A stretch of DNA of 58,956 nucleotides from an uncultured Bacteroidales bacterium (GCA_964451605.1 CAYVJA010000002.1:39969-98924); one strand, 5' to 3'; positions 3,329 to 58,956 are shown, counted from the first letter of the stretch. Notes: generated from the sequence alone by a model not told the origin. A program made the numbers and translations.

Positions 3329-3524
3329 GCGCGCAGCGCAATGCTCTAATGCTCTAATGCTCTAATGCTTTAATGCTCTAGTGCTCTAATGCTCTAGTGC
3401 TGCGCTTCGCACCTGATTGGATGTAACTACCTCTTCGACAAGATAAGTTTTGCGACCCATTTGCGCGAAGCGCAGCATTAAAGCACTCAAAGTGCGTTCG
3501 CACTTTGAAGCATTAGAGCATTAA
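3329..3524. repeat. Intergenic repeat copy A (octamer array + GC clamp + P module + inverted clamp/octamers)
   Basis: GCGCGCAGCGCA is followed by 7 tandem 8-mers (ATGCTCTA/GTGCTCTA, 3341-3396) and GTGCTGCGCTTCGCAC. Then come CCTGATTGGATGTAACTACCTCTTCGACA (3412-3440) and the inverted clamp GCGCGAAGCGCAGCA (3463-3477). The copy ends with the hairpin CAAAGTGCGttCGCACTTTG (3488-3507) and reverse octamers TTAGAGCAT. Confidence 0.9.
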
Positions 3525-3561
3525 ATTATTACCTTAGTATGTTTCAAACCCTCTCCTCACT

Positions 3562-6273
3562 ATGAGATCTTTTCTGTTTTTTGTGGCTTTGCTGCTATGT
3601 CCGGTTTTCCCGGTGCAGGGCGCTGAATTGCTTTCGGTTTATGAATTGCGGTGCGAAAACCGGATTAATCCGGTGGGTATTGATAAGACGACTCCCCGTT
3701 TCAGCTGGAAGTATAGCAGTTCGCAAAACGGTGCCGAGCAGAGTGCTTACCAGCTTATGGTGGCAACTGATTCGGCTTTGCTGGCAAAGGGTAAGCCCGA
3801 TCTCTGGGATTCAGGGAAGTGTAAATCGTCGGCTTCGCTGTGGGTTCCCTACGAAGGATTGCAGTTGGGTTCGGGGATGCCTCTCTATTGGAAGGTGAGG
3901 ATCTGGGATGGCCGCGGAAAGGTTTCGGCATGGAGCCCTGTTGCGCAATGCAGCGTCGGGTTACTTTCCGAGACGGATTGGGGTAGCGCTTCGTACATTG
4001 GTTTTCCTACTGAGGCGGGGTATCGTGAGGCGCCTCAGGTTAAGCAGTTGTTTCGGGTGGAGAAACCAGGCGGAAGGCTCTTTCTGTACGTGAACTCTTT
4101 AGGGTATCATGAGGCCTATATCAATGGCCGGAAGGTGGGAGAGGGGGTGCTGGCTCCCGCGGTTTCGCAGTTTACGAAACGTTCGTATGTGGTGGCGTAC
4201 GACATTACTCCGCTGGTAAAACCGGGCGACAACCAACTGATGTTGTGGCTGGGGAGTGGCTGGTATACCGAGAGCTTCCCCGGGGTGGTGCACAATGGCC
4301 CCTTGGTCAGGGCGCAGATAGAGCAGGTATCGGGTTCGCAACGTGAGCTGTTGGTGGCTACCGACGCTTCATGGAGAGGCCGTAAGAGTAGCTATACCCG
4401 GCAGGGCAATTGGCGCTACGAGGCATTGGGGGGTGAAACTCTTGATGGCCGGATGGCACAGACCGACCTGCTCCCTGAGGGGGCTCAAGGCAGAGAGTGG
4501 CTCCCTGTAACCGTGGTTTCGGTGCCCAGGCATGAGGCCTCTATGCAGCGGACAGAACAGAATCTGATTACCGAGACCCTTTCGCCGGTAAAGATTACGG
4601 CTGTCGGAAAAGACACCTTCCTGGTAGATATGGGCAAGTGTCTTACCGGATGGGCCGATATCCGATTCCCGAGGCTGCAGAAATCGCAGCAGGTGGTGCT
4701 GGAGTTTGGCGATATCCTCGGTAAAAATGGTCGATTGGATCATCACAAACAGATTGATCGCTATGTAGCCGCCGGAAGCGGAAGCGAACGGTTTGTCAAT
4801 AAGTTTAACTATCACGGATTTCGCTATATCCGGATTATCAATCTGAAGGAGGCTCCGTCGGCCGACTCCATCAAGGCCTTCCTGATCCGTACCGGGTTCG
4901 AAACTGCCTCATCCTTTGCCTGTTCTGATCCGGATTTGAATCGTATCCACGACATGGTATCCTATACGCTTCAGTGTCTCAGTATGGGAGGGGTTATGGT
5001 CGACTGTCCCACCATTGAACGGTTGGGCTATGGCGGCGACGGTAACGCCTCGACCGAAACGGCTCAGACCCTGTTTAACCTCAATCCGATGTACCACGAC
5101 TGGTTACAGGCGTGGGCCGATTGTCTCCGCGACGACGGAGGGATGCCGCATACCGCCCCCAATCCCTATCCGGCCGGCGGAGGTCCCTATTGGTGTGGCT
5201 TTATCATTACGGCCTCATGGCGAACCTACCTCCATTACGGTGATTCCGAGATTTTGGAGAAGTTTTACCCGGCCATGCAGAAGTGGTTGGGATATGCCGC
5301 TGCCTATTGGGGCGACGGGCTGTTGAAGGGCTGGCCCGAAACCGACTACCGTACCTGGTATCTGGGCGACTGGGCTACTCCGCGGGGTGTGAATCAAATG
5401 GATCCGGCTTCGGTGGGATTGGTGAACAACTGCTTTATGGCGGTCTGTTTCGACAATATGCAAAAAATTGCCGGGGTGCTGGGTAAAACAGACGATGCAG
5501 CGCGCTATGCCCAACAAAAGTCGGATATCCAAAAACAGATTCATCTCCGCTTTTTCGATGCCCCAAAAGGGAGTTACGGAACCGGTTCGCAGATCGATTT
5601 TGCCTATCCGCTGCTGTCGGGCGTGGTACCCGCAGAGTTACGCAACGAGGTAACTTCGCGCTTTAAAGAGGCTACCGAAACCACCTGGCGAGGCCATCTC
5701 ACCACCGGCCTGGTGGGGGTTCCTGTACTAACGGAGTGGGCGGTAAAGAACAGTGCGGCCGATTTTATGTACAACATGCTGAAAAAGCGCGACTATCCCG
5801 GTTACCTCTATATGATAGACAATGGAGCCACTACCACCTGGGAGCATTGGGACGGAGCCCGAAGCTGGATTCATAACTGCTACAACGGGATAGGTTCATG
5901 GTTTTATCAGGCCCCGGGAGGCATTCAACCCGTTGAAGAGGGGCCTGCCTTCCGGCAGATTCGGATCGAACCGCAAATACCGAAAGGGGTTACCTGGGCC
6001 AAAACCCGGAAGGAGACCCCTTACGGAACCCTTGTAGTAAACTGGACCCTGGAAAATGGGGAGATAGAACTCTCGCTTCAGATTCCCTTTGGGAGTTGTG
6101 CCGAAGTGATGTTGCCTGCTGGCGTGAATCAGTACACATTAAACGGCAAATCCAGGCGAGTTGGTAGCAATCGCGGAACGGAAAACGTGGAGGAAAATCT
6201 ACAGGGTGTTGCGTTGAAGGGAGGGAAGTACACACTGCGCGTCAGCGCATCAGAGCGCGAAGCGCAGCACTAG
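3562..6273 (+). CDS. alpha-L-rhamnosidase (GH78), secreted
   Basis: 903 aa with a signal peptide. The N-terminus (LRCENRINPVGIDKTTPRFSWK) is GH78-like, with a six-hairpin catalytic region. The last ~6-10 codons (…REAQH*) run into repeat copy B. Confidence 0.88.
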   Translation: MRSFLFFVALLLCPVFPVQGAELLSVYELRCENRINPVGIDKTTPRFSWKYSSSQNGAEQSAYQLMVATDSALLAKGKPDLWDSGKCKSSASLWVPYEGLQLGSGMPLYWKVRIWDGRGKVSAWSPVAQCSVGLLSETDWGSASYIGFPTEAGYREAPQVKQLFRVEKPGGRLFLYVNSLGYHEAYINGRKVGEGVLAPAVSQFTKRSYVVAYDITPLVKPGDNQLMLWLGSGWYTESFPGVVHNGPLVRAQIEQVSGSQRELLVATDASWRGRKSSYTRQGNWRYEALGGETLDGRMAQTDLLPEGAQGREWLPVTVVSVPRHEASMQRTEQNLITETLSPVKITAVGKDTFLVDMGKCLTGWADIRFPRLQKSQQVVLEFGDILGKNGRLDHHKQIDRYVAAGSGSERFVNKFNYHGFRYIRIINLKEAPSADSIKAFLIRTGFETASSFACSDPDLNRIHDMVSYTLQCLSMGGVMVDCPTIERLGYGGDGNASTETAQTLFNLNPMYHDWLQAWADCLRDDGGMPHTAPNPYPAGGGPYWCGFIITASWRTYLHYGDSEILEKFYPAMQKWLGYAAAYWGDGLLKGWPETDYRTWYLGDWATPRGVNQMDPASVGLVNNCFMAVCFDNMQKIAGVLGKTDDAARYAQQKSDIQKQIHLRFFDAPKGSYGTGSQIDFAYPLLSGVVPAELRNEVTSRFKEATETTWRGHLTTGLVGVPVLTEWAVKNSAADFMYNMLKKRDYPGYLYMIDNGATTTWEHWDGARSWIHNCYNGIGSWFYQAPGGIQPVEEGPAFRQIRIEPQIPKGVTWAKTRKETPYGTLVVNWTLENGEIELSLQIPFGSCAEVMLPAGVNQYTLNGKSRRVGSNRGTENVEENLQGVALKGGKYTLRVSASEREAQH

Positions 6274-6341
6274 AGCACTTGAAGCGCCATAGCGCTTCGA
6301 AGCATTAGAGCACTAATTAACCATTAACCATTCACCATTTG
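6244..6341. repeat. Intergenic repeat copy B
   Basis: Reads GCGCGAAGCGCAGCAC, TAGAGCAC, hairpin GAAGCGCcataGCGCTTC (6281-6298), TTAGAGCAC, then TAATTAACCATTAACCATTCACCATT. It is oriented with the minus-strand kinase gene and overlaps both convergent stop codons. Confidence 0.9.
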
Positions 6342-8633: not shown

Positions 8634-8738
8634 ATGCCTCTACGCTTCGCGGTGATTGCCATTTACGGGGTAGGCTGGTTTTAGGCAGCCTGAAAGTAAA
8701 GATAGCGTAATTTTTTGCGATATTGACAACCCGAAAGG

Positions 8739-10150: not shown

Positions 10151-10170
10151 GCATAGATGAGCACGGTTCC

Positions 10171-10413: not shown

Positions 10414-12624
10414 TTATTCTTTGATCAATCTGATATGGTCTATCAGCACCCGATTATCGGATCCATTCATATTTTCGTTCTGCGATTCATATTCGATGCT
10501 TATTGTATGACTCCCTTTCGACAGACGCGCACGAAGCGGGTTGCTGTATGCCCAATCCGACCAGGCGTTTTCGCCCCGTTGAGGCATCACAAAGGCATCG
10601 AGTTGGGTGTTGTCGACATAGAGTTGCCGAATGGCACATTTGTCACCCCCATCAATGGGCCCGTTGCCATTCGCATAGCGGACATCTATAAGATAGACAT
10701 TCAATTTGTCGATGTTTACGGTATATTTCAGAACCCGGTTGCTCTTTGTGGTGAGATCCAGAAACCCGTTTCCCGTAAATCCTGTTGCGTTGAAAGAGGA
10801 GCGGGGTGCCGCAGATTCTGCCTCAACAATCTGGGTAGCCTGCGTGGGACTGAACAGGAAGGGAGCACCGCCGTACACCGAATAACCGTTCTTGTCGGAT
10901 GCTGCAAATATAAACTCGGCACTCAGGGCACTCTCTGTTAGGGTGAAGGCAGGCTCTGTGAGCTCTTTAACCACTGTTCCGTTCTGGAACACCTGGAATT
11001 TGGTAATGTCTTCGCGGGCAGAGAAGTTGAAAACGTTGTTCTCTTGTTTATACTGCAGATCGGGAGCCGCGGCAACGATGGGTTGAATGTTCAGCGTTGA
11101 TTCCTGTTTCTGACCATTCATCTCAATCTCGATGGTATGGGCACCTTCCATTTCGGCGGGAATGTAGAATTTCTCGGATGGAGCCCCGTCTATTTTAAAT
11201 GAACGGATACCGGTACCAAAGCCTGAAAGGGTAATGTCGAGAACGGCTTTCCTGTATTTCAGCCCCGAAAGTTTTTTTACTCCTCCCAGTTTTTCGGGAA
11301 CAATAGGGAAAAATGCCAGACCTTTGGCCTGAAAATCAAGGCCGAAATAGACCCTGAATACCACCGACAGATTGGCAGCAATACTCCAGAGGTGTCCGTC
11401 GGCTTTGGCTACCTGTGCTTCTGTTCCACCAGTTTGCGATGATACCGCCAGTCGGTTGGAAAGGAGCAGTGAGGCAGGCCGATAGATAGAGGAGATGGCA
11501 TAAAGGGCTGCCGTGGCGTTTTTGCTCTTGGCAGCGGCCCATGCCCAGTATCCGTTAACCATGGGGTAGATCGACCCGCTTACACCCGGCTCGTTGGGAG
11601 CTCCTGCCGGAAACGAGGCGGGAAGGCCAAAGGGGGTGCCGGGAGTTTGAGCAAGCAGACTGGCCGATTGTTGGTCGTTGGCAATATCGAAGAGAACCGA
11701 GAGAGCCTCTCCCAGCGATTCGGCACGGTTGGAGGGAATGTGAAAATTACGTCCGTACAGGAATTCATTGTAGTACCCTTTTTCAGGATTCCACAAATAT
11801 TTATTGATTCCGATGGAGACCTTTTTCGATTGGGCCATGAAACCTCCCGAGGGTTGTCCCAGCTCGGCAGCCATCTGTTCGGCCACCCGGAACACCTGAT
11901 AGTAGGTGGCATTGTTGGTAAGACTCATGGTGGTGAATACATCAACCGGTTCCATGTAGGAGGGGAGGTTCTTTCCCGGTGTTCCTCTGAAGTACGATCC
12001 GCCCGAGATCAAAGAGTACTGGCGGTTCAAGAGTACCTTGAGATCTTCGTTGAGTGCATTGACGGTAACCCCGTAAGCATCCATAAGAAAGTTTTTGTCG
12101 CCGGTAATTTTGTAGTAGTCCCACGCCGAGAGAATCCAGGAGACACGGTCGACCCATACTGGCCAGGAGCCGCCTAAGCCGGGCTCCTGTAAAATGCGAC
12201 CTGCCTTTACCTTGCTTGTAAGCGTGGCTTTCACGGCTTCCGGAGCCACAACTCCCAGGCCAAGAAATCCGGCATACCCGATATCACGGGTGGAGATATC
12301 TGACGCACCTTTCGACGAAACCAACCTCCCTTCGGGGGTAAGGTTACGTGACAACTCTTCTACAGAAAGGTTGTACATGGCCTCTGTGATAGGGATGTCG
12401 GAGGTAAAGCGCGGAAAGGCCGACAGGTCGGCCGACAGCTTCCAGCTTCCGGCCTGTTCGAAATCCGATTCAATCTCGGTTGCCGAAATTACAGTGGCCG
12501 CCGATTTTTCTTGTTCAACTTTGTCGGCGTAAAGTTTGTATGCATCGGTTTTAAAGAGCGAGGTATCGTTACATGCCGAAAGGATGAATAACGACGCCAG
12601 GAGAAGAAAAGCGATTCTGTTCAT
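10414..12624 (-). CDS. putative (alpha/alpha)6-barrel glycoside hydrolase lipoprotein with C-terminal CBM6/CBM35-like domain
   Basis: Lipoprotein signal (…LFILSAC). The central region resembles six-hairpin glycosidases (GDE_C/GH63-like). The C-terminal ~130 aa resemble CBM6/35 (…GFTGNGFLDL…YLIDVRYANG…WSDW…LSKGSHTISI…IDHIRL). The family assignment is not certain. Confidence 0.6.
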   Translation of the reverse strand: MNRIAFLLLASLFILSACNDTSLFKTDAYKLYADKVEQEKSAATVISATEIESDFEQAGSWKLSADLSAFPRFTSDIPITEAMYNLSVEELSRNLTPEGRLVSSKGASDISTRDIGYAGFLGLGVVAPEAVKATLTSKVKAGRILQEPGLGGSWPVWVDRVSWILSAWDYYKITGDKNFLMDAYGVTVNALNEDLKVLLNRQYSLISGGSYFRGTPGKNLPSYMEPVDVFTTMSLTNNATYYQVFRVAEQMAAELGQPSGGFMAQSKKVSIGINKYLWNPEKGYYNEFLYGRNFHIPSNRAESLGEALSVLFDIANDQQSASLLAQTPGTPFGLPASFPAGAPNEPGVSGSIYPMVNGYWAWAAAKSKNATAALYAISSIYRPASLLLSNRLAVSSQTGGTEAQVAKADGHLWSIAANLSVVFRVYFGLDFQAKGLAFFPIVPEKLGGVKKLSGLKYRKAVLDITLSGFGTGIRSFKIDGAPSEKFYIPAEMEGAHTIEIEMNGQKQESTLNIQPIVAAAPDLQYKQENNVFNFSAREDITKFQVFQNGTVVKELTEPAFTLTESALSAEFIFAASDKNGYSVYGGAPFLFSPTQATQIVEAESAAPRSSFNATGFTGNGFLDLTTKSNRVLKYTVNIDKLNVYLIDVRYANGNGPIDGGDKCAIRQLYVDNTQLDAFVMPQRGENAWSDWAYSNPLRARLSKGSHTISIEYESQNENMNGSDNRVLIDHIRLIKE

Positions 12625-12737: not shown

Positions 12738-13289
12738 ATGAGCCCCTCCGATTTATTCAATTTTCTCTCGCAACGCCAAAGTGTGCGGAGTTTTCTGCCA
12801 CAACCTGTCGAACCCGAAAAGCTTACCCGATGTCTCGAAGCCGCCCGGCTTGCTCCCTCGGCATGTAACGCTCAGCCCTGGACTTTTGTCGTGGTGACAG
12901 AGCCCCTTTTGCGGGAACAGGTGGCCGAAGCAGCGTCAGGAGGAGTGCTCCCGCTGAACCATTTCACCCGGCAGGCTCCGGTATTAATTGTGGTGGTAAG
13001 AGAATCGCCCAACTTCACTTCGGGTGTGGGTCAGGCCGTGAAAAACAAGGAGTTCACCGTGATGGACGTGGGTATGGCCACACTGCAACTCTCGCTCCAG
13101 GCCACAGCCGAAGGGCTGGGGAGCTGCATCCTGGGCTGGTTCAACGAAAAGCGGGTTAAAGAGCTGCTGGCCATTCCCCTCCGAAAAAGAGCCGAATTAC
13201 TAGTGGCGCTCGGCTACCCGGCCTCGCCCGGCATTCGGCCCAAACTGCGCAAACCTCTGGCGGAGATAGTGAGGTATAACCGGTACTAA
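12738..13289 (+). CDS. nitroreductase family protein
   Basis: 183 aa with RQSVRSF…EAARLAPSACNAQPW, typical of the NADH oxidase/flavin nitroreductase fold. Confidence 0.88.
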   Translation: MSPSDLFNFLSQRQSVRSFLPQPVEPEKLTRCLEAARLAPSACNAQPWTFVVVTEPLLREQVAEAASGGVLPLNHFTRQAPVLIVVVRESPNFTSGVGQAVKNKEFTVMDVGMATLQLSLQATAEGLGSCILGWFNEKRVKELLAIPLRKRAELLVALGYPASPGIRPKLRKPLAEIVRYNRY

Positions 13290-13451
13290 TTAGTGCTCTG
13301 GTGCTCTAGTGCTCTAGTGCTGCGCTTCGCGCAAAAAAATATTGTTCGCGCTTGCGCGTATATCTCTTTTTAAAACTCTCGAAGCGCATAGCGCTTCGAT
13401 GCACTTGCGCGTAAGCGCGATGCACCAGAGCATTAAAGCATTAGAGCACTA
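13287..13451. repeat. Intergenic repeat copy C (about 165-bp imperfect palindrome)
   Basis: The left arm is TTAGTGCTCTG GTGCTCTA GTGCTCTA GTGCTGCGCTTCGCGC. The centre has the hairpin CGAAGCGCataGCGCTTCG (13380-13398). The right arm is …GCACCAGAGCAT TAAAGCAT TAGAGCAC TA. It spans the whole gap between the convergent stop codons. Confidence 0.9.
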
Positions 13452-15725: not shown

Positions 15726-16967
15726 TTATTGGAAGCGGATCGATTTATCGGGACTGATGTGGGCAATAATCATGGAGGGAAGAAGCAGCATACTCCATAC
15801 AGCCAACAGCGTTCCCCCGTTTAACAGGAGGATATGAACCAGGTTGAATTCAACCGGCACCTCGGCCAAAAAGTATTGCGATTGGTCGAGTGTGAGGATA
15901 CCGGTACTATATTGAATAAACAGCAGCCCCAACCCGATCAGGTTGCCCCAGAAGAGCCCCTTTAGAATCACCGAGAAGGATTGCATGAGGAAGATGTTCC
16001 GGATAAAGGGATTTGATGCGCCCAGCGACTTGAGTATTCCAATGGTTCGGGTGCGCTCCAGAATCATGATGAGCAGTCCCGATATCATGTTAAATCCGGC
16101 CACCAGAACCATCAGGGTGAGAATAATCCAGACATTGGTGTCGATAATGCGGAGCCAGTCGAAAATTTGGGCATACCGGTCGGTTACACTGATTACCTGG
16201 AGTGTTGCATCGGTGTCGGAATAGTTGGTACCCACGGTATCGTACACCTTGGGATAGAACCGTTCAACCTGCCGGAAGTCGTGAAAGAAGATTTCGAATC
16301 CGCTGATGTAGTCGGAAGGCCATTGGTTCAACCGTTGGATATGGGCGATATCGATAAGGGCAAAAAATTTATCGAACTCTTCGAGTCCTGTTTCATAGAT
16401 TCCAGCCACGACAAATTTTCGGGCTCTGGGAGGATTCTGCATAAACCAGACCGACAGAGAGTCGCCGGGCTGTAAAGCCAGTTGTCGGGCTGTGTAAAGG
16501 GAAATCAGGATGTTGTTGCTCCTGAGGGTATCGGAGGGGGTCCAGGAGTTGCCCTCCGACAGGTTATTTTTGAAAAACGACCAGTCGAAGTCGGATCCAA
16601 TCCCTTTTAGTATCAGTCCACTGGTGGCAACATCGGTTTTGGCCAGCCCCGGTTTGGTGGCGAAGGTCTGGATATGGCGGATTTCGGGAATTTCTGCCAG
16701 CTCTCCGAGAAAAGATTGATTGCGCTTGATGGGCCGGGTTTCGTACGATAGGTTGGAGTCGTAGTTGACAATCTGTACGTGTGCTGCGAATCCGGTTACT
16801 TTATTGGCAATCTGGTGCCGGAATCCGGTTACTACCGATATAGCAATCAGCATCACGGCAAGACTCATTGCCACCCCAAAGGTGGTGATTCGCATCACAG
16901 AGCTCACCCTCTTTTTTTCGGGAGCTTCTGCGGCAAAACGCCGGGCAATGAATAGGGGAGTGTTCAA
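15726..16967 (-). CDS. FtsX/LolC/LolE-family ABC transporter permease
   Basis: 413 aa with the N-terminus MNTPLFIARRF, a MacB-like periplasmic domain and a C-terminal FtsX domain. The start codon appears to be TTG. Confidence 0.85.
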   Translation of the reverse strand: MNTPLFIARRFAAEAPEKKRVSSVMRITTFGVAMSLAVMLIAISVVTGFRHQIANKVTGFAAHVQIVNYDSNLSYETRPIKRNQSFLGELAEIPEIRHIQTFATKPGLAKTDVATSGLILKGIGSDFDWSFFKNNLSEGNSWTPSDTLRSNNILISLYTARQLALQPGDSLSVWFMQNPPRARKFVVAGIYETGLEEFDKFFALIDIAHIQRLNQWPSDYISGFEIFFHDFRQVERFYPKVYDTVGTNYSDTDATLQVISVTDRYAQIFDWLRIIDTNVWIILTLMVLVAGFNMISGLLIMILERTRTIGILKSLGASNPFIRNIFLMQSFSVILKGLFWGNLIGLGLLFIQYSTGILTLDQSQYFLAEVPVEFNLVHILLLNGGTLLAVWSMLLLPSMIIAHISPDKSIRFQ

Positions 16968-17010
16968 CGCGTGGTGTCTGAAGATGATGGCAAAAGTACA
17001 AAAGAATTGT

Positions 17011-17018
17011 TAATTTTG
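17011..17018 (+). promoter_or_regulatory. -7 box TAatTTTG upstream of the DUF1343 gene
   Basis: Exact TAnnTTTG match, 83 nt upstream of the ATG at 17101. Confidence 0.4.
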
Positions 17019-17100
17019 GCAGTTGAACCGCTTCTCCCTGAACGCTTGCCAATGGCTTGTCCTGCAAGGTTTGTTGCCCGGAGGAGGATAATTCTTTTCG

Positions 17101-18279
17101 ATGAGACATTCCCTTGCTATTATTGCTGCTTTGCTCTTTATTATGGTCACTTCGCCCCTCTTTGCTCAGGATGAGGTGGAGGTGGGCGCTGCCCAGGTGG
17201 TGAGCTATGCCCCGTTTCTGAAAAATAAGAGCCTTGGCATTGTAGCAAATCAGACTTCAATGGTGGGTAATACCCATTTGGTAGATACCCTTCTGCGTAT
17301 GGATGCCAAGATTGTGCGCATCTTTTGCCCCGAACACGGATTCCGGGGCGATGCAGATGCCGGCGAAACCGTATCCTCGTACGTCGACCCTCAGACCGAT
17401 ATCCCTGTGGTTTCGCTCTATGGAGACCGAAAGAAGCCCACCACGGCACAACTGCAGGGAATCGACGTCATGTTTTTCGATCTGCAGGATGTGGGTGCCC
17501 GTTTTTACACTTACATTTCTACGCTCCATTATGTAATGGAGGCGTGTGCGCAAAACGGAATACCTCTGGTTATTCTCGATCGTCCAAATCCCAACGGCCA
17601 CTACGTGGACGGTCCGGTTATGGAGGCGGCCTATAAGTCGTTTGTAGGGATGCATCCGGTTCCCGTTGTACACGGGATGACGATTGGGGAGTACGCCCAG
17701 ATGATAAATGGAGAAGGATGGCTGGCTAACGGCATCTCCTGTAGTTTAATGGTAATCCCCTGCCGAAACTATACCCATTCTGTCCGCTATTTTCTGCCGG
17801 TGCCACCATCGCCCAATCTGAAGTCGATGATGGCAATCTATTTATATCCTTCTATCTGCTTCTTTGAGGGAACCTCATTCAGTTTGGGTAGAGGGACCTC
17901 CGATCCGTTTACGATGTATGGCCACCCCGATTTTCCTGATACCTCCTTTTCGTTTGTGCCGCAAAGTATGCCGGGTGCAAAGCTTCCTCCCCTGATGGGA
18001 CGGAAATGTTTTGGTGTCGACTTGAGCACAACAAATCCCGACTCTTTTTTCGAGAAACCCGGTTTGCGTATCTCCTATTTGCTCGATGCCTATAATCGTA
18101 CCCCCGACAAAGCCCGGTTTTTTGTACCCTATTTCGAAAAGCTTGCCGGAACAGCACAGTTGCGGGCGCAAATCCGGAAAGGGATGTCGGAAGAGGAGAT
18201 CAGGGCCACCTGGGAACCCAAATTACGCGAATTCCGCGAGATCCGGTCCCGCTACCTGATATACCGCGATTTTAAATAA
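17101..18279 (+). CDS. namZ: DUF1343 family protein (exo-beta-N-acetylmuramidase NamZ-like), secreted
   Basis: Signal peptide. The NQTSMVG…HLVD…IFCPEHGFRGD… pattern is typical of DUF1343/NamZ. Confidence 0.8.
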   Translation: MRHSLAIIAALLFIMVTSPLFAQDEVEVGAAQVVSYAPFLKNKSLGIVANQTSMVGNTHLVDTLLRMDAKIVRIFCPEHGFRGDADAGETVSSYVDPQTDIPVVSLYGDRKKPTTAQLQGIDVMFFDLQDVGARFYTYISTLHYVMEACAQNGIPLVILDRPNPNGHYVDGPVMEAAYKSFVGMHPVPVVHGMTIGEYAQMINGEGWLANGISCSLMVIPCRNYTHSVRYFLPVPPSPNLKSMMAIYLYPSICFFEGTSFSLGRGTSDPFTMYGHPDFPDTSFSFVPQSMPGAKLPPLMGRKCFGVDLSTTNPDSFFEKPGLRISYLLDAYNRTPDKARFFVPYFEKLAGTAQLRAQIRKGMSEEEIRATWEPKLREFREIRSRYLIYRDFK

Positions 18280-19466: not shown

Positions 19467-21752
19467 ATGATGCTCACGATTAACCCCGCTCTTTCGGAAA
19501 AAGTACAGCGGGTTGGAAACATCGGATGGTGGAAAGTATGCTTTGAATCGCAGACTATCAGTTGTTCTTCTTATCTGTGTGAGCGTTTTGGACTCTCTTC
19601 ACATACCTTTTCTTATCGGGAACTTTTATGGAGTTTGTGTAAAGCAGACCGTAGGCGTGTGGCCTCCGATTTTATGCTTTTGCAGGCGGGAAGTTTTGTG
19701 CAGAACGTCTATCGGGTTTCTATAGCAGACGAAACCATTTGGCTTCATGTCTATTATAGCCATCGTGAGGCGGTGTGTGAGGGCGGTCCCTCCTGTGCCG
19801 TGGGTTTTGTGAAGGATATCACTTTCGATGAGCGGCGCTTTTCGTTTCTCAAGGGCCTGTTGGATTATCCTGCCAATCGCGATAACCTTGCGGCATTCGA
19901 AGAGAAGCTTCCCTCCAGTTTCTTACGAGCCTGGTCGAAGTCGATAAGTAAATTTGAACGAAAATTTCATCCGGTGGCGCAAATCGCCGAGATGGGTTGG
20001 TTTTTCTGGTTCCCCGCCCGAAAAGAGGGCTTTGCCACCGAGATGTGGTACCGGAATCTGGGCGAGAAACCTTTTACTCCTCTACATCAGGTTATCGGCA
20101 AGTTTCAGAATGTGCACCCCGAAGACCGGATATCTCTGTGCCGATACCTTGACTGCGGTGCCGCACATGTGGGCGTGCAGACAATTGAAGTGCGAGTGCG
20201 GGATAACGGCGGTTGGCGTTGGATTCAGTCGACGATGATCTCGGGTGGGTTAGACGAGGGTTCGGGTTCGAACGAAGAAGTCACTGAAATATGGGGTATA
20301 AATCAGAATATTACCACTACACGCAAATTAAAACTGCGTAACCTGAAAATTGTGGAATCGGTTCCCGACTCCATGTATCGTCTTTCGCGCGGATTGGTCA
20401 TCGAGGAGTGGCTCTCGAATGAGTCTACCTGGCAGACAGTTCCTTATGCCCCTGCCGGAACTTCACTTTCAAATCTGTACGGAGAGAAAGTCTGTGAAAC
20501 CTTTGGTGTGGCTGTGGAGACCTGTTTGCGCGATGGGGTGAAGCAGTTTTTCAAGTTCAATGTGCCGGTAAATGGGGCAAAGGTCTATCTCGATTGCACC
20601 ATGGTGCCTTTCGATGGCACCAGTGTCCTCTGTTTTCTCCATAATGCCACTCAGGCAGTATTGGGCAAGAAGGCCATCGAAGATTTAAATGAGTTAAATA
20701 ACAGCTTGCTCAAGAATATTCCCGCCGTAGTTTACGTAAAAGATCCGGGCGATGATTTTCGTTATATCATTTGGAACCGTATGGCGCAGAATTCCGGAAT
20801 CTACAACCGTCGGGATGTGCTGGGTGCCTCCGACTTCGATCTGCTTCCCGAGGAGCAGGCGCGCCTGGCCCGAACGGACGATGAGCGGCTGCTCGAAACC
20901 GGTGTGGGCGAAGAGTCGACGCAGGTGTTCGAGGGTAGCGATGGCAGCCCTCGCTATATCAGTATTCGTCGAACTCTGGTTCACAGGAATCACAAGTTGC
21001 CCTTAATTCTCGGTATCGGTTGGGACATCACCGAAAAGGTGTTTGTCCAGGAGGAGTTGATGCGGGCAAAAAACAAGGCAGAGGAGTCGGATCGCTTAAA
21101 ATCGGCTTTTCTGGCCAATATCAGCCACGAAATCCGGACGCCGTTAAATGGAATAGTGGGTTTTGCCAATTTGCTGAACGACAGTGATCTCACACCAGAG
21201 GAGCGGGATGCCTATTCGCAGCTTCTTAATGAGAATAGCCAACGGTTACTGCAGCTGGTAAACGATGTCCTCGATATCTCTTTTATTGAATCGGGGAGTC
21301 TCTTTTTTCGGATTCAGCCCTGTAACCTCCATACCCTGTGCCTGGATCAACACCAGAGTATCTCTCTGCTTGTCGACAAGGATGTAGTTTGTAATGTATC
21401 ACTTCCTGACACCCCTTATACCATTGATACCGATTCGCACAGGTTGAATCAGATTCTTTTCAACCTGCTCGATAATGCCCGAAAATTCACCTCTTCGGGA
21501 ACCATTACCCTGGGTTACGGCCCGATTTCTCCAAACCGAATGGAGTTCTGGGTAGAAGATACCGGTATTGGCATTGGAGAGAGCCACCTTCGTAAACTGT
21601 TCGATCGCTTTTATAAGGTCGACGACCTGACACGCGGAACCGGGCTGGGACTCTCGCTTTGCAAACTCCTGGTCGAACGGCTGGGTGGCGCCGTCTCAGC
21701 AACCAGTACGCCCGGAGCGGGATCGAGATTTTCGTTCTGGCTACCTTGTTAG
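19467..21752 (+). CDS. multi-PAS sensor histidine kinase
   Basis: The ATG-ATG at 19467 is preferred, because the track's upstream extension overlaps the divergent permease. H-box ISHEIRTPLN and HATPase_c (GTGLGLSLCK). Its HisKA region is near-identical to that of kinase 6324-8633. The stop TAG lies inside repeat copy D. Confidence 0.85.
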   Translation: MMLTINPALSEKVQRVGNIGWWKVCFESQTISCSSYLCERFGLSSHTFSYRELLWSLCKADRRRVASDFMLLQAGSFVQNVYRVSIADETIWLHVYYSHREAVCEGGPSCAVGFVKDITFDERRFSFLKGLLDYPANRDNLAAFEEKLPSSFLRAWSKSISKFERKFHPVAQIAEMGWFFWFPARKEGFATEMWYRNLGEKPFTPLHQVIGKFQNVHPEDRISLCRYLDCGAAHVGVQTIEVRVRDNGGWRWIQSTMISGGLDEGSGSNEEVTEIWGINQNITTTRKLKLRNLKIVESVPDSMYRLSRGLVIEEWLSNESTWQTVPYAPAGTSLSNLYGEKVCETFGVAVETCLRDGVKQFFKFNVPVNGAKVYLDCTMVPFDGTSVLCFLHNATQAVLGKKAIEDLNELNNSLLKNIPAVVYVKDPGDDFRYIIWNRMAQNSGIYNRRDVLGASDFDLLPEEQARLARTDDERLLETGVGEESTQVFEGSDGSPRYISIRRTLVHRNHKLPLILGIGWDITEKVFVQEELMRAKNKAEESDRLKSAFLANISHEIRTPLNGIVGFANLLNDSDLTPEERDAYSQLLNENSQRLLQLVNDVLDISFIESGSLFFRIQPCNLHTLCLDQHQSISLLVDKDVVCNVSLPDTPYTIDTDSHRLNQILFNLLDNARKFTSSGTITLGYGPISPNRMEFWVEDTGIGIGESHLRKLFDRFYKVDDLTRGTGLGLSLCKLLVERLGGAVSATSTPGAGSRFSFWLPC

Positions 21753-21921
21753 TGCTCTAGTGCTCTTGTGCTCTAGTGCTGCGCTTCGCGCGCCATCGCA
21801 TTAACCATTGATTTCCGCCTAATTGGAGGTAACTGCCTCTTCGACAAACTTGTCATGTCGAAGAGGCAGTTACCTCCAATCAGGCACTGTTCTACTGCTT
21901 TACTGTTCCACTGCTACATTG
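21749..21921. repeat. Intergenic repeat copy D (octamers + clamp + P-module hairpin + S module)
   Basis: Reads TTAGTGCTCTA GTGCTCTT GTGCTCTA GTGCTGCGCTTCGCGCG, then CATTAACCATT, then the inverted P modules. The tandem S module CACTGTTCTACTGCT/TTACTGTTCCACTGCT occupies 21885-21921. Confidence 0.9.
21818..21884. repeat. 29-bp inverted repeat (28/29 complementary) with 9-nt spacer: two opposed P modules
   Basis: CCTAATTGGAGGTAACTGCCTCTTCGACA aacttgtca TGTCGAAGAGGCAGTTACCTCCAATCAGG. Confidence 0.9.
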
Positions 21922-22020: not shown

Positions 22021-23868
22021 ATGAAGACTTCTGCTGTTACGCCGTTTTTTTGTTGGTGCACGCTCTTTTTGTGTCTCTTTTTCCCGTTGAAGGCTGCCGA
22101 TCCTGATGTGAAGATTACGCAGGATGTCGAAACTTTCACTCTCGATAATGGGATTGTTTCGGCACGGGTGTCGAAGGTTACCGGCGATTTGGTTTCGTTT
22201 CGATATAAGAATGTCGAGATGTTTGCCACTTCGCTTTCGCCCGATTTTATCCCGGTGGCGCAGGGTGAAACCCCGGCAGATAATCCAAACTGGCGGAATC
22301 CCTCTATTACCGGACGTCAGCATGCGTACTGGTCGCACGATGCGATGGGTGTCAGGGGTTCGGCGCCTGCTATTCCTTCTGTTACAGTCGATCCAAAAAA
22401 CTTCGGAGGCGATGTGGGCGAGGTTTCGGTGAAGGCCATTTCGAATGGACGGAAGATGGGTACGGGTCCGGGGGCTTCGGCCGACGGACAGTTTGTGGCC
22501 GATATTGAGATCCGTTATGCCCTGGAAAGGGGCGAGTCCGGAATCTATACCTATTCGGTTTTTGTCCATAAACCGGAGTATCCCGTTACTGAGTTGGGCG
22601 AAGCCCGTTTCTGTGCCAAGCTGGCTCCTTTTTTCGACTGGATGAGTGTCGATCCCAAAAAGCATTTTTTGTCTATGGAGTAGATGAGCGGCGGGCCTAC
22701 CAAGGTAGAGTTCCTGGGTCACCGCGATACCAATGCGGAGGCGGCAGCTACGGTGCTCAACTATTGGCGGAGCAGCCACTACGGAGGGGCCGAGGTGAAT
22801 GTGGCTGCCGGCGAGGCGTGGGAGAAGGTAGTCGGGCCGATGTTTATCTATGCCAACAGTGGCCCCAATCCGGATGCCATCTTCGCCGATGCCCGTGCCC
22901 GTGCAACCCTCGAAGCCCAAAAGTGGCCCTATCCCTGGGTGAAGGGTGTCGACTATCCTCTGGCATCGGATCGGGCCACGGTTTCGGGCCGTATGGTACT
23001 TAAGGATCCCATTACCCCGAAAACTTTTGTGAATCTTACAGTAGGTCTTACAGCCCCTGCCTACGAGTCGCCCCGTCTGGTAGCGCCTCCGGTTCCGGTG
23101 ATTACCGACTGGCAGCGCGATGGAAAGTTTTATCAATTTTGGGTAAAAGGCAATCCCGACGGAACCTTTGCCTTACCGGCAGTGCGTCCTGGCCGGTATA
23201 CGCTGCATGCCTTTGCCGATGGTGTGTTGGGCGAGTTTATCAAGACGGATGTTGTGATAACAAAAGGGGGTGAATTCCGCCTGGGGAAACAGGAATGGAT
23301 CCCTTTGCGAAAGGGCCGTCAACTCTGGGATATCGGCATTGCCAATCGGAGTGCCTCCGAGTTTTTTATGGCCGAAAAACACGTTGATCCGGAGATTTCG
23401 CTTGCCTATGGTGCCCTTTTTCCTAATGATGTACAATATACCATTGGGAAGAGCAACTTCCGCACCGATTGGTTTTTCCAGCATGTGCCCCACAATGAAA
23501 ACCCTGAGGCGAAATCGGCTCCTTTTTACGGTGCCAACTCCCCGGGGCGTGCAACCCCTTACACTGTCAACTTCGAGTTGCCCTCCGTGCCTAAGGGTAC
23601 TGTCATTCTGCGGTTGGCCATTTGCGGCACCGGAACGCGTACGCTTGATGTTACGGTTAACGGGAAGCCAGCCGGTAAGCTCGACGGATTGGTGGCCGAC
23701 GGGGTGATTACCCGTCACGGTTTGCAGGGAATCTGGTACGAAAAGGAGATTGTTTTTGATGGTGCGCTTTTGCAGAAAGGAACCAATCAACTGGTGCTTA
23801 CGGTACCAGCCGGTCCGGTGAATAACGGGATAATGTACGACTATATCAGGCTGGAAATTAGTGATTAA
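22021..23868 (+). pseudogene. rhamnogalacturonan endolyase (PL4-like) interrupted by an in-frame TAG at 22681-22683
   Basis: ORFs 22021-22683 and 22684-23868 are contiguous and in the same frame (…LSME-TAG-ATG-SGGP…). Together they give ~614 aa with a signal peptide, an RhgB_N-like N-terminus and fn3/CBM-like C-terminal domains (…GIMYDYIRLE). Confidence 0.7.
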
Positions 23869-23963
23869 ATGCTCTAATGCTCTAATGCTCTAGTGCTCTA
23901 GTGCTGCGCTGCGCGCAAATGGTTAGTGGTCAATGGTGAATGGTAAATGATGAAGAGTGAAGG
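23866..23963. repeat. Intergenic repeat copy E
   Basis: The stop TAA is followed immediately by ATGCTCTA x3, GTGCTCTA and GTGCTGCGCTGCGCGC. Degenerate TGGTNAA repeats follow (AATGGTTAGTGGTCAATGGTGAATGGTAAATGATGAAGAGTGAAGG). Confidence 0.9.
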
Positions 23964-24024
23964 CGACGGGATGTGGGTGTTGAGGTGATGAATGTTTTGC
24001 ATTGAGGTTATCCCGGGAATTTCG

Positions 24025-24032
24025 TATATTTG
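24025..24032 (+). promoter_or_regulatory. -7 box TAtaTTTG upstream of the ICMT-family gene
   Basis: Exact TAnnTTTG match. It supports the ATG at 24094 as the start rather than 23992. Confidence 0.4.
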
Positions 24033-24093
24033 TTTAAGGAGGATTTCTGGTGTAATACCACTCTGTTTAACAATCACTTATACATTCTTATTT

Positions 24094-39409: not shown

Positions 39410-39441
39410 AAAAAAACGCCGGGGAATCCCGGCGTTTTTTT
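39410..39441 (+). terminator. Rho-independent terminator after tRNA-Glu(UUC)
   Basis: CGCCGGG-gaat-CCCGGCG followed by T7. Confidence 0.8.
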
Positions 39442-39469: not shown

Positions 39470-39574
39470 CACCAGAGCATTGCGCACCAGCGCATCACCA
39501 GAGCACCAGAGCACTGTTTCACTGCTACACTATTACACCCGCGCGCAGCGCATCATTAGAGCATTAAAGCATTA
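39470..39574. repeat. Intergenic repeat copy F
   Basis: On the plus strand it reads CACCAGAGCAT TGCGCACCAGCGCATCAC CAGAGCAC CAGAGCAC, then TGTTTCACTGCTACACTATTACACCC, GCGCGCAGCGCATCA and TTAGAGCAT TAAAGCAT TA. It is oriented with the GH2 gene, whose stop (39572-39574) lies in the first octamer. Confidence 0.9.
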
Positions 39575-42834: not shown

Positions 42835-42959
42835 AATGGTTAACTCTCAATGGTGAATGGTTAATTAATGCTCTAATGCTTCAAAGTGCTAATGCACTAG
42901 AGCACTAGAGCACTAGAGCATTAGAGCACTAGAGCATTAGAGCATTGCGCGCAGCGCAT
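42835..42959. repeat. Intergenic repeat copy G (divergent promoter region GH2 / gltX)
   Basis: AATGGTTAACTCTCAATGGTGAATGGTTAATTA is followed by ATGCTCTA ATGCTTCAAAGTGCTAATGCAC. Six reverse octamers follow (TAGAGCAC/TAGAGCAT, 42898-42945), then TGCGCGCAGCGCATC. Confidence 0.9.
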
Positions 42960-42968: not shown

Positions 42969-42976
42969 TATCTTTG
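42969..42976 (+). promoter_or_regulatory. -7 box TAtcTTTG upstream of gltX, 9 nt after repeat copy G
   Basis: Exact TAnnTTTG match, 23 nt before the ATG at 42999. Confidence 0.4.
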
Positions 42977-52915: not shown

Positions 52916-53158
52916 TTCATTCACCCGGCCATTGCCGGCCGAAACGGTAGGGCAAATATAGCGATTGTTCTCGATACTGCCTATCGGGTAGCAAAATTTG
53001 CCTTTCACAGATCTTCTCCGAGTGCTGGAGAACAAGAATTGGGCCATTTCTTTATGACCCCGCATTTTTTCGTTATTTTCGCCCCCGGTCTAAACTATTC
53101 GGTTAGGCGGGTGTTGTATTTGCGTACAATTTGGAATAATTACTTAGAAAATAAAACA

Positions 53159-54679: not shown

Positions 54680-54696
54680 TTCTCCGGGAGTTTGCC

Positions 54697-55679: not shown

Positions 55680-56458
55680 GGAGAGAGGGTTAGGATTGAG
55701 AGGTTTTCCTCATTTTCGTAAAACATATCGGGAATCATTTTCCCGGTGGCAATGTACTCCAGCGCCTGTTCGGCAGCACTCTGTTCGGCCTCTTTTTTCG
55801 AGGAACCGTTACCTCTTCCCAAAACGAAATGGCCACGAACCTTCACAGTTGTGGTATAGATGGCAGATCGTTTGTTAGCGGCCTCATCCGTGCTTTCCCG
55901 GGTGTCGAACAGAAGGAAGATTTTCTGCTTCTGTCCCCACTCAATCAACCGACTTTTGAAGTCGGTGTCGTGGGTCATCAGATCGTTGAGGTTAACAAAA
56001 TTCTTTATGATAAATCGTACCACATATTTTCGGGTTTTTGCATACCCTTTATCGAGGTACATTGCACCAATCAATGCCTCCAGGGCATCTCCGTATATTC
56101 GCCTTTTTTGGGGATGAAGTGCCGTGTGGCATACAATGGCCCGATCAAGGCCCATCTTCTCGGCCACATCTTCCAGATTTGAGCGCTTAACAATTTTCGA
56201 CCGCATCTGGGTGAGAAAACCTTCGTTCCGCAGAGGGAACTTTTTAAAGAGATATTCCGCTACAATCGCATCGAGTACAGCATCGCCCAGATACTCGAGT
56301 CGTTCGTTGTTAATCATTACATGTTGCGCATGCGGAATCGATGCAGAGCGGTGCAGAAAGGCCTGTTCGTAAAGTCCCGGATTGTGGGTCTTGACTTTCA
56401 GCTCTTTGCGTAAAAAACAATAAAACTCCCTATTGTCCTTGACAATAAGGAGTTTCAT
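55676..56458 (-). CDS. rnc: ribonuclease III
   Basis: RNase III signature (NERLEYLGDAVLD) and a C-terminal dsRBD (…GSSKKEAEQSAAEQAL). The ATG at 56458 is preferred over the TTG at 56482. Confidence 0.93.
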   Translation of the reverse strand: MKLLIVKDNREFYCFLRKELKVKTHNPGLYEQAFLHRSASIPHAQHVMINNERLEYLGDAVLDAIVAEYLFKKFPLRNEGFLTQMRSKIVKRSNLEDVAEKMGLDRAIVCHTALHPQKRRIYGDALEALIGAMYLDKGYAKTRKYVVRFIIKNFVNLNDLMTHDTDFKSRLIEWGQKQKIFLLFDTRESTDEAANKRSAIYTTTVKVRGHFVLGRGNGSSKKEAEQSAAEQALEYIATGKMIPDMFYENEENLSILTLSP

Positions 56459-56484
56459 TGTATGTGCCAGTTTCCTGAACAAGG

Positions 56485-57735: not shown

Positions 57736-57756
57736 AATTTCAGAGTAACGGACAAA

Positions 57757-57996
57757 CTACTTGTTGATGTTTTCTTCGATGTACTTGATGGCAGCACCTA
57801 CAGTCGAGATGTTTTCAGCCTGGTCGTCGGGAATTCCAATGTTGAACTCTTTTTCAAACTCCATGATCAATTCAACGGTGTCAAGAGAATCGGCTCCCAA
57901 ATCATTGGTAAAACTTGCATCCGGGGTTACTTCGCTTTCGTCAACACCCAGTTTGTCTACGATAATCGCTTTAACTCTTGAGGTAATGTCAGACAT
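57757..57996 (-). CDS. acpP: acyl carrier protein
   Basis: 79 aa starting at the ATG at 57996 ([12 protein letters not shown]…), with the DLGADSLD phosphopantetheine-attachment motif. Confidence 0.95.
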
Positions 57997-58149
57997 ACTT
58001 TTAATTTTTAAATGAGTACAAAATGATTCCTTGTATTTTGGTGCTGCAAAGAAATGGATTAAATCCAAAATTATCAAACAATTTGGAATATTCTTGGAGG
58101 TTTTGTATTTTTTAGCATCCTTTGTAACCTTCGTTATTCACCCAATTCC

Positions 58150-58719
58150 ATGAATAAGCTAGCTCTTTTTGCGTCGGGGTCCGGTTCGAATGCCCAGCGA
58201 ATAGCCGAGTATTTTGCTGATCACTCCGATGTAGAGGTCTCCTGTATTTTATCAAACCGCACCGATGCCTACGTGTTGGAGAGAGCCCGAAAACTTGCGA
58301 TCCCTTCGTTCAGTTTTACGCGCGACGATCTCTACACCTCCGATAAGGTGCTCCGCATACTTGAAGATTACTCCGTAAATTTTATCGTATTGGCTGGATT
58401 TTTATGGAAAGTGCCTTCCATTCTGTTAGAGACCTATCCCAACCGAATCCTGAACATCCATCCCGCTTTATTGCCAAAATACGGAGGTAAAGGGATGTAT
58501 GGCGAACATGTTCACCGGGCGGTAGTTGCAAACCGCGAAACAGAAACCGGCATCACCATCCACAAGGTAAACGACCACTACGACGAAGGAGAGATCCTTT
58601 TTCAGGCGCGTTGCGAAGTCCTTCCCACCGATACCCCCGCGCAAGTAGCCGAAAAGGTCCATGCACTCGAATATCGCTGGTTTCCGGAAATCATAGAGCA
58701 GTATCTGGCAACGCTCTAA
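58150..58719 (+). CDS. purN: phosphoribosylglycinamide formyltransferase
   Basis: 189 aa with ALFASGSGSNAQ, NIHPALLPKYGG and a conserved Asp region. The stop TAA lies inside the first octamers of repeat copy H. Confidence 0.92.
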   Translation: MNKLALFASGSGSNAQRIAEYFADHSDVEVSCILSNRTDAYVLERARKLAIPSFSFTRDDLYTSDKVLRILEDYSVNFIVLAGFLWKVPSILLETYPNRILNIHPALLPKYGGKGMYGEHVHRAVVANRETETGITIHKVNDHYDEGEILFQARCEVLPTDTPAQVAEKVHALEYRWFPEIIEQYLATL

Positions 58720-58956
58720 TGCTCTAATGCTCTAGTGCTCTAGTGCTCTAATGCTCTAGTGCTCTAATGCTCTAGTGCTCTGGTGCTGCGCTTCGCGCGA
58801 ATTCCGCTTGATTCTGCCTGATTGGGGGTAACTGCCTCTTCGACATGACAAGTTTGTCGACCCATTCGCGCCCTCACTCGCTAAAAGAGGAGAACTCGCT
58901 ACGCTCAAACAGCTCCTCTTTTTAGCGCTCATTGAGAGCGATGGGTCCCCGCCCAA
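58711..58956. repeat. Intergenic repeat copy H (longest octamer array + clamp + P module + structured tail; runs off the window)
   Basis: Nine tandem 8-mers occupy 58711-58782, followed by GTGCTGCGCTTCGCGCG. The P module CCTGATTGGGGGTAACTGCCTCTTCGACA is at 58817-58845. The nested hairpins that follow include CTAAAAGAGGAG…CTCCTCTTTTTAG. Confidence 0.9.

Follow-up and report, generated by a model that had tools for sequence, protein, structure and literature searches.

The 58,956 nucleotides of DNA from an uncultured Bacteroidales bacterium that were analysed here, referred to below as the window, contain similar-looking blocks of intergenic sequence, which raises the question of whether these form a repeat family, whether such a family is already known, and how its copies came to lie against the ends of genes. 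An earlier note had claimed a modular intergenic family of eight copies, and all eight, with all the named modules, were recovered at their coordinates (Table 1). The modules they share are far more frequent than expected by chance and are confined to the eight sites; a motif search of the window found none of them outside the copies. The copies apparently represent an undescribed family of non-coding palindromic repeats abutting gene ends. Copy B starts at about 6236 instead of 6244, and copy H, the site of which was correctly placed, extends ~215 nt beyond the window end, the complete copy (L001:10561-10932) measuring ~370 bp.

Arrays of the 8-nt O unit are present at each of the eight sites in 2.4 to 9.4 copies (Tandem Repeats Finder), and the O-unit dimer RTGCTCTRRTGCTCT has 30 matches in the window with at most one mismatch, compared with 0.03 expected. 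The tandem arrays agree with the earlier description, although its total of about 45 units becomes ~53 when counted at ≤1 mismatch. The C module GTGCTGCGCTTCGCGC has seven matches with at most two mismatches (0.08 expected) and the C variant TGCGCGCAGCGCA has nine (1.2 expected), both in the window. The P module is present, as previously listed, at 3412, 21818, 21856 (minus strand) and 58817, with none expected, and W, S and both hairpin types occur in the copies and nowhere else in the window.

Table 1. Position, folding, modules and setting of the eight copies; z scores are relative to dinucleotide shuffles.
Copy	Position	z	Modules	Setting
A	3326..3526	-8.1	Mini-hairpin TTGCGC-GCA-GCGCAA; O array, 7.8 units (3340-3401); C hairpin (3397-3412); P (3412-3440); spacer; C' (3463-3478); O' units split by hairpin CAAAGTGCG-TT-CGCACTTTG (3488-3507)	Divergent pair, flavodoxin-like gene (minus) and rhamnosidase gene (plus)
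B	6236..6341	-4.6	TGCGC-GTCA-GCGCA; C'; O'; hairpin GAAGCGC-CATA-GCGCTTC; O'; W heptamers	Entire gap between convergent rhamnosidase and hybrid histidine kinase genes; contains both stop codons
C	13293..13449 (flanking TA at 13291-13292 and 13450-13451)	-10.9	O array (3.9 units); C; A/T-rich core with CGCGCTTGCGCG; hairpin GAAGCGC-ATA-GCGCTTC; GC hairpin; O' array	Convergent nitroreductase and der genes; last unit overlaps der stop TAG
D	21752..21921	-8.7	O array (3.9 units); C; W fragment; perfect 29-nt P / P' palindrome (21818-21884); S (8-nt CACTGTTC-like units)	Histidine kinase gene stop TAG is TA plus first base of first unit
E	23869..23963	+1.3 (not palindromic)	Left half only: O array (4.8 units); C variant GTGCTGCGCTGCGCGC; W heptamers	Directly 3' of PL4 lyase gene stop TAA
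F	39470..39574	-1.5	Right-half modules only: O'; TGCGC-ACCA-GCGCA; O' O'; S; CGCGC-GCA-GCGCA; O' array	tRNA-Glu terminator on one side, GH2 beta-galactosidase gene stop (minus strand) on the other; last unit contains this stop
G	42835..42959	-5.8	W; two O units; half hairpin CAAAGTGC; O' array (6.4 units); TGCGC-GCA-GCGCA	Divergent GH2 (minus) and gltX (plus) genes; end 40 nt upstream of gltX ATG (42999)
H	58711..58956 (truncated by window end)	-12.3 (complete copy)	In window: O array (9.4 units); C; P; core with its own hairpin. Remainder (L001): diverged P', degenerate C', O' units, hairpin CAAAGTGC-ATTT-GCACTTTG	purN stop TAA inside first, degenerate unit

The copies are 100 to 370 bp long, non-coding and arranged on a common plan, TA / (RTGCTCTR)n / GC mini-hairpin / variable core / mirror image / TA, in which the O-C arms constitute terminal inverted repeats; an ORF is called across copy H but matches nothing in Pfam. 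They are mosaics of modules, as reported before, but the order is more regular than the 'varying order and orientation' described, since the outer O arrays always face inwards, the GC mini-hairpins adjoin them and the variable core is central, indicating that module order is not free. As its core a copy may carry A/T-rich DNA, the P palindrome, or 7-8-nt tandem repeats of another kind, such as W and S. The description of most copies as large imperfect palindromes holds strongly for six of the eight (A, B, C, D, G and H), which fold at z -4.6 to -12.3 relative to dinucleotide shuffles; the two half-elements, E (z +1.3) and F (z -1.5), have no strong fold. Small perfect stems within the element regions belong mainly to two classes, TGCGC-N3-4-GCGCA and (TC)GAAGCGC-N3-5-GCGCTTC(GA), in which the stems are fixed and the loops free; loops differ in 16 of 19 cases of the GAAGCGC class, and the hairpin stems appear to be under constraint.

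The ends of the elements are associated with TA dinucleotides and with stop codons. TA directly precedes 22 of the 37 outermost units, and in 17 of these 22 the flank is unrelated A/T-rich DNA. In the register TARTGCTC, the TA flank is also the end of a repeat unit, which makes the flank ambiguous and a target-site duplication at TA no more than putative. At least ten flanking ORF stops begin 2-3 nt ahead of the first unit, and Der, the TAG stop of which coincides with the element end, is 435 aa long with or without the element.

The possibility that the copies are an assembly or chimera artefact, which the earlier note had named as the outcome that would undermine the finding, is effectively refuted. 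Assembly from short reads does break at the arrays, and in one MAG a copy is interrupted by an N-gap, but the same copies are present at the same sites in independent assemblies of the species (ENA assembly, NCBI MAGs, JGI contig and Logan). They are spanned by contigs as long as 135 kb as well as by the JGI contig, and have orthologues in other species. The short-read contigs from at least eight samples that end inside arrays are expected for a true multi-copy repeat.

The family was found in the window species and in the MAGs JBFWIG01, CAZINC01, CAYGID01 and CAYGIQ01, and CAZAZE01 carries diverged units. In sister species (~85% DNA identity), all five comparable sites, orthologous to A, B, C, D and H, are occupied. 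The orthologue of copy A (L100) has kept its arms with the core replaced, that of copy C (L104) carries extra hairpin-plus-O modules, and that of copy D (L046) is larger and has been rebuilt as a different mosaic. The orthologue of copy B (L100) is 100% identical over ~115 nt, compared with 85% in the flanks, and this perfect conservation between species could equally reflect a host function and not a selfish origin. In 31 kb from relatives at a greater distance (Der identity 80-81%, PurN 68%) the family is missing, also from the syntenic purN-TPR spacer. No filled-versus-empty site pair was found among close relatives, and empty sites were seen only in relatives too diverged for exact boundaries. 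Strains 99.2-99.6% identical differ by whole array units (D +1, E +1, H -2). The ENA strain has one O unit more in copy D and one unit more in copy E, in which everything from the mid-C hairpin to 24852 is missing, and the O array of copy H has 7 units in L001 against 9.4 in the window.

No named family had been recognised earlier, and searches of Rfam, the literature, a plasmid collection and IMG/VR were likewise without a match. At the gathering threshold Rfam detected only four tRNAs in the window and no copy, and permissive scans returned sub-threshold matches only, nearly all of them generic eukaryotic miRNA hairpins; a full-text literature search found no published papers with the unit strings, and the plasmid collection and IMG/VR contained nothing similar to the repeats. 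The arrays are not CRISPRs, which have repeats of 23-50 nt and unique spacers of similar length, as the units here are 8 nt long and lie head to tail with no spacers. The elements themselves are not transcription terminators, a role that had been suggested: in none of the copies does a T-run follow a hairpin, and all 73 terminator-like matches lie elsewhere, with ordinary terminators adjoining F (~39417-39441) and H (L001:10933-10985).

The REP/BIME repeats of Proteobacteria, which are associated with RAYT and include REPINs, resemble the present family in having short, GC-rich palindromes whose loops vary while the stems stay fixed, and in joining these palindromes to linker motifs as intergenic mosaic clusters in which unit number varies. 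Both lie mostly at gene ends, persist at orthologous sites and probably form hairpins in single-stranded DNA or RNA. REPs carry a conserved GTAG or CGTC tetranucleotide at one palindrome end (PMC3733652), and this tag is missing from the hairpin foot here: GTAG/CTAC is found only within P, S or core modules and CGTC once, in a loop, the hairpins being flanked instead by AGCACT, AGCATT or GTGC. Further differences are linkers made of tandem 8-nt and 7-nt microsatellites, a whole cluster that forms one large palindrome with defined, TA-bounded ends, and a host in the Bacteroidota with no RAYT gene seen in the window or in ~284 kb of element-bearing loci. Window genes are housekeeping and CAZyme genes only by Pfam, with no transposase, and in the ~284 kb a crude HUH-motif screen found nothing transposase-like and an all-against-all ORF comparison found no multi-copy protein.

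The Correia/NEMIS elements of Neisseria and the RUP elements of Streptococcus pneumoniae, which are TA-flanked bacterial MITEs, share with the family a length of 100-400 bp, the non-coding character, terminal inverted repeats with TA at both ends, density in intergenic DNA near genes and long-hairpin folding. They differ in that the termini here are octamer arrays of strain-variable number, each copy is a different mosaic and not near-identical to a master, no partner IS is known, and comparable sites are all conserved between species. Cyanobacterial STRRs, which are heptamer arrays, and NIMEs, the intergenic mosaic elements of Neisseria, are similar in having intergenic tandem 7-nt units (compare W and S) and repeat-block mosaics split by short inverted repeats, respectively, but phyla, unit sequences and architecture differ and there is no link to phage integration or heterocyst-forming cyanobacteria. 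BrickBuilt of Porphyromonas gingivalis (PMC4596501), from the same phylum, is a MITE with an internal tandem-repeat array (minisatellite), whereas the tandem arrays here are the inverted arms, and the two have no sequence similarity, judging from the full-text search that found no paper with the unit strings.

On balance, and with little more than even confidence, the family is best explained as a lineage-restricted, REP/BIME- or MITE-like non-autonomous mosaic palindromic repeat that entered at stop-codon TA and is now long-resident. It would have spread as non-autonomous mobile DNA, inserting at TA dinucleotides of A/T-rich gene ends. The first base of the element is R and the last is Y, so that whichever strand is read, TA followed by R restores TAA or TAG. 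Landing in a stop codon would thus do no harm in either orientation, and this silence may account for the copies that lie flush against stop codons. Copies then remain where they are over the long term, as the occupied sites of the sister species show. The whole units that arrays gain and lose between strains presumably arise by replication slippage, and the gain, loss and swapping of modules probably by recombination between short direct repeats. No pair of copies is near-identical from end to end, giving no sign of recent transposition. Exact stems alongside drifting loops point to a hairpin formed in single-stranded DNA or RNA, or else to a trans-acting protein that recognises the stems, be it a host factor or a transposase. 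A more speculative and unlikely proposal is that the copies are cis-partners of a dedicated trans-acting protein reading the stems TGCGC/GCGCA and TCGAAGCGC/GCGCTTCGA, forming a vertically inherited, REPIN-like 'genomic symbiont' system of the Bacteroidota with hypermutable octamer-microsatellite arms and stop-codon insertion that is silent on both strands; the protein could, for instance, be a domesticated factor that binds DNA or RNA, or a transposase acting on single strands in the manner of RAYT.

Instead of mobile DNA, the copies may be RNA-level cis-elements in 3' untranslated regions, conferring protection against 3'-exonucleases or providing sites for RNase III or RNA-binding proteins, a possible but unlikely role. 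As each copy is palindromic, both convergent mRNAs would carry (UARUGCUC)n and then stable hairpins after the stop, which fits the copies that begin flush with stop codons, the very stable folds, the fixed stems with varying loops and the perfect conservation of copy B. Copies occupy 4 of 11 convergent junctions in the window compared with 2 of 10 divergent and 2 of ~22 tandem junctions, an enrichment that would also agree but is not significant with eight copies. However, copies A and G are flanked by divergent genes and sit upstream of the likely promoters, where transcription is not required; no hairpin is followed by a U-tract; and the left and right arrays are unequal and strain-variable in unit number, so that arm pairing is not maintained.

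The spread of copies over convergent, divergent and tandem junctions would fit an action at the DNA level, as a platform that insulates transcription units through binding of nucleoid or topology proteins or through cruciforms, comparable to gyrase and IHF on BIMEs. Symmetric, inward-facing arrays and the conservation of stems and octamer sequence across species are consistent with this role, which is nonetheless rather improbable given that an 8-bp period does not hold successive sites on one helix face, that unit number drifts freely between strains, that there is no candidate binding protein, and that a core chromosomal function would not be expected to be limited to one small clade. The inverted O-C arms around a variable core of 50-250 bp also recall invertons, in which they would be recombinase sites flanking a switchable segment, and such elements are common in Bacteroidales and abundant in the phylum. 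This is very improbable here, as most copies lie at gene 3' ends and not upstream of regulated operons, cores are often themselves palindromic or simple repeats, the orientation is the same in both strains compared (two assemblies), half-elements E and F exist, and no recombinase gene is nearby.

REP-type repeats have been catalogued mainly in Proteobacteria, Bacteroidetes being named only as hosts of CGTC-tagged repeats (PMC3733652), and a literature search yielded one paper on a Bacteroidetes MITE (PMC4596501); the present family is a clean case from an uncultured Bacteroidales lineage in a phylum little charted for such repeats. It allows slow and fast evolution to be separated, with stems and positions kept across species, octamer number varying between strains and modules turning over. 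The repeats also break short-read assemblies of this lineage, leaving contigs bounded by copies, and create spurious ORF calls, and unit number is a potentially good strain-typing marker. If the geometry in which TA plus R makes a stop codon is true, it would provide a means by which compact genomes are colonised without gene damage.

The repeats form a real family and not an assembly artefact, an origin that is extremely improbable since the same copies occur in other assemblies and orthologous copies in sister species. The eight sites (copies A-H, the last of which runs past the end of the window) listed in the earlier note were all confirmed by direct reading of the sequence, and Tandem Repeats Finder returned an array with an 8-nt period, 2.4 to 9.4 units long, at every one. 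About 53 RTGCTCTR (O) units are present in the window at ≤1 mismatch. The two-unit O pattern matched 30 times against 0.03 expected, the GC clamp (C) seven times against 0.08 and its variant nine times against 1.2, and the P module matched four times against 0 expected, at exactly the positions previously reported. The W and S repeats and both hairpin types are confined to the copies, with none elsewhere in the 59 kb. The window has a G+C content of 50% and ordinary chromosomal genes, including fumarase, rhamnosidase, histidine kinases, der/era, PL4 lyase, valS, gltX, methylmalonyl-CoA mutase, fabF/acpP/rnc, purN and four tRNAs. ORFs 10414-12624 (736 aa) and 26688-28199 (503 aa) had no Pfam match, and an exact-protein look-up of ORF 33004-34203 returned no record, probably because its predicted start is wrong.

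The copies share a single grammar, in which an outer TA is followed by an inward-pointing RTGCTCTR array and, on the inward side of the array, by a GC mini-hairpin (TGCGC-N3-4-GCGCA). The C clamp and its variant listed in the earlier note are both present and are one and the same hairpin of this form. The core varies, consisting of the P palindrome, A/T-rich DNA or other 7-8-nt tandem repeats, and a mirror image closes the copy, its inverted O units (O') often being interrupted by a (TC)GAAGCGC-N3-5-GCGCTTC(GA) hairpin, of which CAAAGTGC...GCACTTTG is a variant. W heptamers can attach outside the C-type hairpin. The perfect small stems found across paralogous copies fall mainly into two sequence classes, and loops differ in 16 of 19 hairpins of the GAAGCGC class, the stems being fixed and the loops variable. 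Array ends are sharp, with TA preceding 22 of the 37 outermost units, 17 of which adjoin unrelated A/T-rich DNA. The large palindromes claimed for most copies were borne out for A, B, C, D, G and H; E, a left half, and F, which has right halves only, are not palindromic. Beyond the window end, H contains a diverged inverted copy of P, so that it is an element of the D type whose core is larger.

Folding z-scores of the copies, computed against dinucleotide shuffles, and positions of other tandem arrays at loci of related MAGs
Feature	Position	Fold z
Copy A		-8.1
Copy B		-4.6
Copy C		-10.9
Copy D		-8.7
Copy G		-5.8
Copy H, complete (~370 nt)		-12.3
Other tandem array	L024:4630-4720	
Other tandem array	L029:3880-3980	
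Other tandem array	L020:3940-4010	
Other tandem array	L095:7367-7400	
Other tandem array	L077:3590-3640	

These other arrays have 7-11-nt units (for example gatttgga(g/a)a, tagtgttt, ggcagtt and gaattatcaca) and lie in or beside elements; a clade-wide tendency to short tandem repeats may feed the variable cores.

The repeats are a dispersed family of non-coding palindromes with defined ends bounded by TA, and comparison with other genomes showed them to be restricted to a clade. In the same species, the 135-kb ENA contig ERZ15185028 NODE_183 (loci L001 and L109) shows 99.2-99.6% identity and has the same copies, and short-read contigs of at least eight other samples stop within the C, D and H arrays. 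The sister MAG JBFWIG01 (85% identical to the window at L100 and 82% at L046) has elements at the orthologues of sites A, B and D, and the sister MAG CAZINC01 (Der 96% and PurN 89% identical) at those of C and H. Two further carriers are the MAG CAYGID01 and the MAG CAYGIQ01, which is labelled Prolixibacteraceae; CAZAZE01 has diverged units. Scanning a genome collection with a loose two-unit pattern gave at least four carrier MAGs among many chance matches, and scanning JGI metagenomes with the C'-O' junction gave eight matches, two of them true family members (L119 and L121) and the remainder chance matches in high-GC coding DNA. No family member was found in IMG/VR or among plasmids (PLSDB), and no orthologous F or G sites among the GH2 homologues examined, the nearest of which is ~70% identical and not syntenic. 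No O units are present in 31 kb of more distant relatives, represented by ERZ27245256 and ERZ27245258 contigs (Der 80-81% and PurN 68% identical), and their syntenic purN-TPR spacer keeps the terminator alone. These relatives also lack the nitroreductase gene (12738-13289) beside copy C (L105:4870-4931; L106:3090-3171), the conserved 736-aa gene directly following der; joint arrival of the nitroreductase gene and the element, or loss of both in these relatives, may account for this.

The copies have resided for long at orthologous sites, with unit number shifting between strains and whole modules turning over between species. Strain differences in the arrays are of whole units (+1 in D, +1 in E and -2 in H), and the rest of copies A-D has 0-1 substitutions in ~520 nt, compared with 0.85% in the background. 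Interspecies comparison found ~115 nt of copy B to be 100% identical, with flanks at 85%, which ranks it with the best-conserved stretches of 8 kb; both arms of copy A are retained around a different core, copy C has gained or lost whole 'hairpin plus O unit' modules, and copy D has been rebuilt as a larger mosaic.

Further differences were observed around these sites. A contig from SRR29243436 ends at copy C (L112:8440-8476, compared with window 13293-13330) in ...CACTAGAGCACTTGAAG, which begins an extra hairpin module like that of locus L104; in the window, more O' units stand at this point. This is either within-species module polymorphism or a chimeric contig tip. The ENA strain lacks the segment 23915-24852, which contains the inner part of copy E with its W heptamers and a gene for a PEMT/ICMT-like methyltransferase (23992-24846). 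In that strain the truncated C hairpin of copy E (…GCTGCGCTGCG) abuts the stop of the cation-efflux gene, placing the left breakpoint inside the hairpin. The PL4 rhamnogalacturonan lyase gene (22021-23868), intact in the ENA strain (654 aa), is broken in the window, where an in-frame TAG at 22681-22683 stands in place of the TAT of the ENA strain and 117 nt are deleted in frame at ~22672.

By the gene map of this analysis, copies occupy four of 11 convergent, two of 10 divergent and two of ~22 tandem junctions, and they lie flush with coding sequence: the terminal unit makes, or directly follows, the stops of der, the histidine kinase at 21752, purN, PL4 lyase and GH2, and the rhamnosidase and hybrid kinase ORFs both terminate within copy B. 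Family-wide, there are at least 10 cases in which the stop of a flanking ORF (≥120 aa) starts 2-3 nt ahead of the first unit. TAA or TAG is present at each unit boundary and TAG on the complement, so that three or more units close all three frames in both directions. Near-matches to the Bacteroidetes -7 box TAnnTTTG at 3538-3545 (TATGTTTC) and 42969-42976 (TATCTTTG), just downstream of copies A and G and ~20 nt ahead of the rhamnosidase and gltX start codons, are putative promoters; the stretch after copy A is nearly identical in the sister species. The acpP-fabF-rnc cluster may have an internal terminator or attenuator in a perfect hairpin of 20 bp with TTTTTT after it (56418-56460, minus strand), which lies between fabF and rnc and overlaps the TTG predicted as the rnc start.

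Several readings were rejected. Rfam scans excluded an Rfam family, and the tandem 8-nt structure excluded a CRISPR array. The terminator role suggested in the earlier note finds no support, as none of the 73 terminator-like matches in the window lies inside a copy; ordinary intrinsic terminators adjoin F (~39417-39441) and H (L001:10933-10985). Integron gene-cassette attC sites were rejected because the flanked genes are housekeeping and of mixed orientation, and DNA uptake sequences because the octamer is found only in arrays, ~1 per 7 kb. The sole ORF matching an HUH regular expression (16804-17256, minus) has no Pfam match and overlaps real genes. On the idea of a restriction-site decoy, there is strong avoidance of CTAG outside the copies (observed/expected 0.18; 11 sites in 57.7 kb), and 17 of the 28 CTAG sites of the window lie inside them, within 1.3 kb of elements, but GCGC, ~10 times denser inside copies, is not avoided outside and TCGA is not avoided, and the idea is kept as an observation only.

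We lean slightly towards non-autonomous mobile DNA that would have spread into TA in A/T-rich gene ends. TA followed by the first base R of the unit would regenerate TAA or TAG on either strand, so that insertions into stop codons would be neutral and survive, which would explain both the flush junctions and the length of Der, 435 aa with and without the element. The short direct repeats would then drive slippage and unequal recombination, giving the mosaics, and the fixed stems would point to a trans-acting reader or to a hairpin that is needed. Against a mobile origin, conservation as strong as that of copy B could indicate a host function, TA also belongs to the repeat unit, and neither a precise empty site nor near-identical full-length copies were found; nor was a partner gene, the lack of any transposase, RAYT or multi-copy protein in the window and ~284 kb of carrier loci being a weak negative result, as these are not a complete genome.

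An RNA-level 3'-UTR element is rather unlikely, and a platform for binding or structure at the DNA level, comparable to BIMEs with gyrase or IHF, is unlikely; both could be combined with a mobile origin, through later co-option. That the copies are invertons is very improbable.

Repeats of this kind, namely REP/BIME elements, MITEs and intergenic mosaic elements, are already known, and this family itself appears to be undescribed in the literature. Its design is unusual in that the hairpins do not carry the GTAG/CGTC tags of REP elements (PMC3733652), the inverted arms are octamer microsatellites and the element ends reconstitute stop codons.
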